Shown in pieces: positions 60,307 through 60,670 of a DNA stretch of 64,000 nucleotides. Position 1 is the first letter of the stretch, and every line of letters begins with the position of its first letter. This DNA is from Escherichia coli 042 (lineage in GTDB: Bacteria > Pseudomonadota > Gammaproteobacteria > Enterobacterales > Enterobacteriaceae). The notes under the pieces are model-generated. The model ran no database searches, was not told the origin of the DNA, and saw only the letters and a list, made by a program, of their open reading frames with translations. The position numbers were made by a program, and so were the translations under genes. The stretch lies in NCBI RefSeq assembly GCF_000027125.1, contig NC_017626.1. One strand, given 5' to 3'.

Positions 60307-60629
60307 ACTGACTCCTTAATTGCGTTTGGTTTGACTTATTAAGTCTGGTTGCTATTTTTATAATTGACAAATAAGAATACTGCCAATTGTTATAAGGCAT
60401 TCAAAATCAGGCAACTAGCTGTCAAATATTAAGAGAATTTAACTCACTAAAGTAAGAAGAAGATTAAAGAGTCTTAAACATATTTCAGAACAATCAGATT
60501 TATAAATTTGAAAATTATTATAACGGAAGGGTATACAAAAAAAGTAATTTTGCTGGCGACTGCGAAACGGCATTCGCATTAGCGGTGAAGTTTGCCCCCA
60601 CCCAGCTGCTGCAATTACTGCTCTAACCA

Positions 60630-60659
60630 GGCTGGCCTGGCGATATCTCCAGGCCAGCC
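60630..60659. other. Perfect 11-bp inverted repeat just downstream of dcp
   Basis: ggctggcctgg-cgatatct-ccaggccagcc; no U-run on either strand, so not a canonical intrinsic terminator. Confidence 0.4.
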
Positions 60660-60670
60660 ATTGGTGGTGT

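Follow-up and report, generated by a model that had tools for sequence, protein, structure and literature searches.

A truncated ydeJ gene between ydeI and dcp in Escherichia coli 042 and the 475-bp deletion that it shares with other E. coli genomes

YdeJ is one of three CinA/PncC homologues of E. coli; owing to active-site substitutions, it reportedly lacks NMN deamidase activity, and its gene was described as showing mild decay (PMC3855486). In Salmonella, the ydeJ promoter is sensitive to supercoiling, and deletion of ydeJ makes the DNA more negatively supercoiled, for which the gene was renamed rdsA (PMC7387798). Both PGAP and NCBIfam NF002972 name YdeJ a “2-oxo-tetronate isomerase,” though it is a CinA/PncC-domain protein. 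A 2025 paper assigns the E. coli 2-oxo-tetronate isomerase activity (EC 5.3.1.35) to b2739, a hydroxypyruvate-isomerase-like protein (PMC12506659). The product name of YdeJ looks to be erroneous and to have propagated through thousands of genome annotations.

In K-12 MG1655, the gene order is ydeI, ydeJ, dcp, with ydeJ (b1537; positions 2283–2801 of the K-12 locus, L001) lying on the strand opposite to ydeI and dcp. The K-12 product is 172 amino acids (aa) long and matches the CinA domain PF02464 (E = 9e-48) and NF002972. The gene order, the size of ~172 aa, and the CinA/PncC-like assignment had been given in a first-pass annotation of the E. coli 042 DNA considered here, and all agree with the MG1655 record. 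Here, we compare the ydeI-dcp interval of a 64-kb stretch of the E. coli 042 chromosome (64,000 nt of contig NC_017626.1, referred to as the window) with that of K-12, of 5426 complete E. coli genomes, and of other Enterobacteriaceae.

The ydeI-dcp interval and its junction

Both genes that flank the interval are intact in the window. The ydeI gene (59914–60306, minus strand) encodes a 130-aa YdeI/YgiW-family periplasmic OB-fold stress protein that matches NCBIfam NF007471 (E = 6e-78) and the Pfam BOF family PF04076 (E = 5e-41), and it is 98.7% identical to K-12 ydeI at the nucleotide level. The dcp gene (60671–62716, minus strand; stop codon at 60671–60673) encodes peptidyl-dipeptidase Dcp and is 97.4% identical to its K-12 counterpart over 2030 nt. 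Counted from a TTG farther upstream, its open reading frame (ORF) is 703 aa long; from the annotated start (MTTMNPF), it is 681 aa, in agreement with the 2046-nt dcp records.

Between these genes lie 364 bp (60307–60670) that contain no ORF of 60 aa or more according to the ORF list, as had been stated in the first-pass annotation; the longest overlapping ORFs are 51, 46, and 38 aa. The description of the interval as AT-rich holds overall, with a GC content of 37.4% compared to 47.2% for the whole window, but applies to only one of its two parts: positions 60307–60546 are 27.5% GC, while positions 60547–60670 are 56.5% GC.

Elsewhere in the window, the 3′ end of the small-protein gene mgtT (58551–58643, plus strand) appears to be frameshifted. 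Eight consecutive A in the window correspond to 9 A in the close relative AF206 and to a G followed by 8 A in K-12, and the predicted product ends in ...DGKKNRQ before the stop (30 aa) instead of ...DG(E/K)KKPPVNRR (34 aa). This could be either a real homopolymer slip or a sequencing error.

Alignment with the K-12 ydeI-dcp interval, which the first-pass annotation had proposed as a check, revealed one 475-bp gap. Gap computation placed the segment that is missing from the window at L001:2247–2721, with a clean junction. Of the 519 nt of ydeJ, the first 439 are missing, along with the 36 bp that precede the start codon. The junction lies at 60546|60547 (60546–60548, since an AT microhomology leaves the breakpoint ambiguous over 2 nt). 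All of the 364-bp interval is homologous to K-12: blastn aligned a block of 240 bp (90.1% identity) and one of 124 bp (93.5%). The first of these blocks, 60307–60546, aligns end to end with L001:2008–2246 and corresponds to the retained divergent intergenic (promoter) region between ydeI and ydeJ. The 46-aa ORF mentioned above (60439–60579, minus strand) spans the junction and is thus a chimeric ORF made by the deletion; its ATG requires a substitution absent from K-12, and it is known as a predicted ORF only.

Immediately downstream of the junction, positions 60547–60626 (plus strand) match the 3′ end of ydeJ in both blastn and tblastn searches. This remnant consists of 2 nt of a split codon, 25 codons encoding FAGDCETAFALAVKFAPTQLLQLLL, and a TAA stop at 60624–60626, and it is in frame up to the original stop codon of the gene: the window sequence FAGDCETAFALAVKFAPTQLLQLLL and the K-12 sequence FAGDCETVLALAVRFALAQLLQLLL both read FAGDCET...LLQLLL before the stop. 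The last 80 nt of ydeJ are included in the 124-bp block that is 93.5% identical to K-12. A tblastn search with K-12 YdeJ against the whole 64-kb window retrieved only residues 147–163 of the protein (E = 2.5e-4). The nucleotide and in-frame protein homology at the syntenic position, with ydeI and dcp as flanks, identifies the remnant as a ydeJ pseudogene. No full-length (~172 aa) ydeJ/CinA-PncC gene with a PF02464 domain was found in the window, and the 25-aa remnant matched no Pfam family. The deletion relative to K-12 that the first-pass annotation had suggested is thus borne out by the 475-bp gap and the 80-nt 3′ remnant. The same annotation had held that a ydeJ homolog detectable in the interval at the nucleotide level would speak against its proposal; the remnant is, formally, such a homolog, but it confirms the deletion reading.

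The remnant differs from K-12 at 7 of 80 nt (8.75%), with five of the differences being nonsynonymous, while the neighboring genes ydeI, dcp, and dgcZ diverge from K-12 by 1.0 to 2.6%. Small as the sample is, this divergence is suggestive of relaxed constraint on the remnant relative to its neighbors and would fit neutral decay after the deletion. In strains elppa4, AF206, and R4, PGAP marks the equivalent 81 bp as “incomplete; missing N-terminus.” An exact-pattern scan of species-representative genome contigs with TTTGCTGGCGACTGCGAAAC, taken from the remnant, returned no match, presumably due to single-nucleotide polymorphisms (SNPs).

We also considered where transcription of ydeJ might have started. 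On the plus strand of the K-12 locus, every promoter-like site, each a pattern match only, precedes the point at which the deletion begins. The window retains one of these pattern matches, TTGACT-16-TATTTT, at 60331–60358. Shuffled sequence contains such sites at least as often, and they were used only to place candidate ydeJ promoters upstream of the deletion. Short noncoding read-through from the retained candidate promoters into the remnant is possible.

Taken together, these observations lead us to read the ydeI-dcp interval as the scar of an old 475-bp deletion that inactivated ydeJ and became fixed in whole E. coli lineages, a reading to which we assign a probability of roughly 0.93. The event removed the ribosome-binding region of ydeJ (the 36 bp upstream) together with codons 1–146 and one further base, so that the intergenic region between ydeI and ydeJ now abuts the last 80 nt of the gene. 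An AT-rich region with the candidate promoters, a decaying 25-codon tail of ydeJ, and an ancestral GC-rich hairpin were left behind.

Could a mobile element have made the deletion, either by insertion of an insertion sequence (IS) followed by an adjacent deletion or by imprecise excision? AF206, the best match in a 1.4-kb search across the region (99.4%), carries an IS1 (L003:2238–2935) between ydeI and the ydeJ remnant, on the upstream side of the remnant, and so identifies the AT-rich intergenic region as an IS target. However, the alignment of the interval with K-12 revealed no trace of an IS at the junction, neither its sequence nor terminal inverted repeats nor a duplicated target site, and no foreign DNA either, since every base of the interval aligns to K-12 and no extra bases are present. 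Moreover, the AF206 element is an addition onto an already deleted allele: the ydeJ remnant is annotated downstream of the IS1, and the insertion is therefore later than the ydeJ deletion. An origin through a mobile element is, accordingly, very improbable. Because the junction shows no mobile-element sequence and its microhomology is limited to 2 bp, we infer that the 475-bp deletion may have arisen by illegitimate recombination or replication slippage; it is the 2-bp microhomology that points to these mechanisms.

Distribution, order, and direction of the deletions

The first-pass annotation had left it open whether the absence of ydeJ was specific to the strain. The window junction was therefore searched for in the 5426 complete E. 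coli genomes by using an 80-mer centered on it (at least 80% coverage and at least 95% identity). It was found in 1761 genomes (32.5%), S88 and clone D i14 among them, which argues against strain specificity. An identical junction in this many independent complete genomes, these two reference strains included, leaves practically no room for a private deletion in 042 or an artefact of the 042 assembly. The absence of ydeJ is lineage-wide, common, and already recorded as a pseudogene in public annotation.

The segment deleted in the window is present in 3618 of the 5426 genomes (66.7%). Together, the two counts reach 5379, below the total of 5426, and the median is one place per genome; these figures are compatible with the absence of a second ydeJ copy in the junction-bearing genomes. 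The best matches of the window are 99.7% identical over 12 kb. One match of a different kind, NZ_CP074830.1 (H24; the bovine strain 7_15_5C, 5.5 Mb), covers only positions 463–1401 of the 1.4-kb query. There, ydeJ and dcp are annotated and ydeI is not, so that the ydeI side may have been rearranged or may carry an insertion.

A further deletion of ~504 bp is found next to the first one. In strain R4 (L004:1615–1823), which has the same ydeJ junction as the window, it removes the ydeI promoter and all of ydeI except its last 90 nt. In the resulting double-deletion allele, the two deletion junctions are only ~40 bp apart. The second junction was detected in 1123 of the 5426 genomes (20.7%), including UTI89, Nissle 1917, S88, and clone D i14, which we take to be phylogroup B2 strains. 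By subtraction, the configuration seen in the window, with ydeI intact and ydeJ truncated, occurs in ~640 genomes (~12%). Since the double-deletion strains share an identical ydeJ junction, the sequences indicate that the 475-bp deletion came first and that the ydeI deletion was nested onto it later. The simplest history would be a single ancient event followed by inheritance by descent, to which spread by recombination may also have contributed.

Judged from the alignment, the difference between the two strains is a deletion in the window and not an insertion in K-12, because the last 80 nt of ydeJ survive in frame. The opposite direction, with the window ancestral and ydeJ gained by insertion in K-12–like strains, was weighed by using 80 loci from species-representative genomes, retrieved through the Dcp C terminus. 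Two results would fit such a gain. None of the five representatives of other or divergent Escherichia species has an intact ydeJ adjoining dcp, and neither ydeI nor ydeJ is found nearby in most of the Enterobacteriaceae loci retrieved. Yet an insertion in K-12 cannot account for the 80 terminal nt of ydeJ that the window retains, in frame up to the stop codon. In Salmonella enterica subsp. diarizonae (L018) and Citrobacter sedlakii (L015), ydeJ is convergent with dcp, and ydeI lies beyond it; this arrangement therefore predates Escherichia, and the state of the window is derived. The absences in other Escherichia have different breakpoints, and two of these genomes (L005 and L007) keep ydeJ 3′ remnants of different lengths. 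We thus regard a gain of ydeJ in K-12–like strains as barely credible and retain the deletion reading.

Loss of ydeJ has occurred in other Escherichia with breakpoints different from that of the window, often together with ydeI and dgcZ. Escherichia sp. MOD1-EC7003 (L005) lacks the segment corresponding to K-12 positions 527–2757, which comprises dgcZ, ydeI, and most of ydeJ, and keeps a 44-nt remnant. A genome labelled E. coli that is only 84 to 89% identical (L007) lacks positions 1643–2676 and keeps a 125-nt remnant. In E. whittamii and Escherichia sp. E1V33 (L006 and L009), ydeJ and the hairpin downstream of it are replaced by a shared unrelated segment of ~170 nt, and E. albertii (L008) lacks both ydeI and ydeJ. 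The ~170-nt replacement segment carries a Fur-box–like sequence, AATGATAATTATCATC, and a hairpin of its own. At least five distinct deletion junctions were thus seen in the genus. Repeated loss is the pattern expected for a dispensable gene, and the loss is evidently tolerated.

It could be asked whether the loss of ydeJ (rdsA) was instead adaptive, being selected through supercoiling or NAD-related metabolism in certain lifestyles, such as that of extraintestinal pathogens. The number of distinct junctions in Escherichia (at least five), the fixation of one deletion in about one-third of E. coli, and the more negatively supercoiled DNA of the Salmonella ydeJ mutant (PMC7387798) are in line with selection. 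On the other hand, neutral decay itself predicts that a dispensable gene is lost repeatedly, and YdeJ was described as an already decaying, catalytically inactive paralogue (PMC3855486). We consider an adaptive loss unlikely. More doubtful still is an elaboration of the same idea, in which the loss was selected to reset the supercoiling set-point and the retained promoter, 80-nt tail, and hairpin might yield a functional short orphan RNA.

The hairpin between the convergent stop codons

The GC-rich part of the interval contains a hairpin (60630–60659), located by inverted-repeat search and folding, with the stop codons of the convergent genes ydeJ and dcp on either side. It confirms the perfect 11-bp inverted repeat that the first-pass annotation had noted next to the dcp stop: the arms, GGCTGGCCTGG (60630–60640) and CCAGGCCAGCC (60649–60659), are separated by an 8-nt loop, and the structure starts 3 nt past the ydeJ stop codon and, on the other strand, 11 nt past the dcp stop codon. 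A scan for the full inverted-repeat pattern gave a single occurrence in the window, compared to none in 100 shuffles. The predicted folding energy is approximately −30 kcal/mol on either strand, with z scores of −3.4 (plus) and −4.2 (minus).

Two readings had been proposed for this repeat, namely that it may mark the junction or be a REP-like element. In line with these, and with a mobile repeat that mediated the deletion, the repeat is a nonrandom, perfect palindromic stem located inside the shortened interval. However, it lies 83 nt downstream of the 60546|60547 junction, outside the deleted segment, and K-12, where ydeJ is intact, carries the same hairpin with a 1-nt difference in the loop. 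A 55-nt query containing the hairpin was found in 5416 of the 5426 E. coli genomes, with a median of one place and a maximum of two places per genome. A search of positions 59600–61000 against Rfam at a permissive E value of up to 1 returned no family match; REP elements are not necessarily in Rfam. With one copy in the window and a median of one per genome, a REP or other dispersed palindromic repeat was rejected on copy number. There is next to no likelihood that the repeat marks or mediated the deletion. The hairpin is evidently ancestral and predates the deletion.

When one mismatch was allowed, the 11-nt arm GGCTGGCCTGG gave eight matches in the window compared to 0.7 expected from shuffles. 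Two of these are the hairpin arms themselves; the other six, at 13641, 18258, 37693, 37881, 51401, and 58165, were not treated as a repeat family. A bias in oligonucleotide composition, which is lost in dinucleotide shuffles, may explain the excess.

Strong hairpins of unrelated sequence directly follow dcp in E. albertii, Escherichia sp. E1V33, the divergent genome L007, Salmonella, and C. sedlakii, and E. whittamii has the E1V33 sequence at this position. That hairpins differing in sequence recur after dcp across species argues that structure at the 3′ end of dcp has a conserved role. Inferring from position and structure, we find it most likely that the hairpin in the window is a shared 3′-end structure, either a terminator or a stabilizer, for dcp and, formerly, ydeJ. 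After the loss of ydeJ, dcp would have kept using it.

Implications and comparison with known systems

As a gene loss, the locus has little discovery value: it is a common and already annotated pseudogene scar, and the lost paralogue is reported to be catalytically inactive. The junction does provide a clean lineage marker, by which ydeJ-positive strains can be told apart from those that carry only the ydeJ deletion and from those in which ydeI is deleted as well. A protein that was tied to supercoiling in one Salmonella study (PMC7387798) is naturally missing from about one-third of E. coli, and results on RdsA should therefore not be assumed to be transferable across strains. Strain comparisons offer a ready natural experiment on YdeJ/RdsA; in strains with the second deletion, the neighboring stress gene ydeI is truncated too.

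The hairpin resembles intrinsic bidirectional terminators between convergent genes in being a GC-rich perfect stem-loop that is located just past both stop codons and predicted to be stable on both strands. It differs from intrinsic (Rho-independent) terminators in that no U-tract follows the stem on either strand, the tails being ATTGGTGGTGTTTAT (plus) and TGGTTAGAGCAG (minus), and it was not called by a consensus terminator scan that requires at least 5 T in 8 nt; it is known from its sequence alone.

Compared to K-12 ydeJ, positions 60547–60626 of the window are homologous to the last 80 nt of the gene and have the same position and orientation. Only 25 of the 172 codons are kept, and the start codon, ribosome-binding site, and CinA domain are missing; the remnant therefore cannot encode YdeJ. 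The closest counterparts are the partial pseudogenes annotated by RefSeq/PGAP as K9U07_RS02265 in elppa4 and AC9VRX_RS14715 in AF206, where both the 81-bp remnant and the junction are as in the window. A few SNPs distinguish the window from elppa4, and the window lacks the IS1 of AF206; there is no other substantive difference. The double-deletion allele of R4, UTI89, Nissle 1917, S88, and clone D i14 likewise has the same ydeJ junction, remnant, and hairpin as the window; those strains, however, keep only the last 90 nt of ydeI, while in E. coli 042 ydeI is intact.
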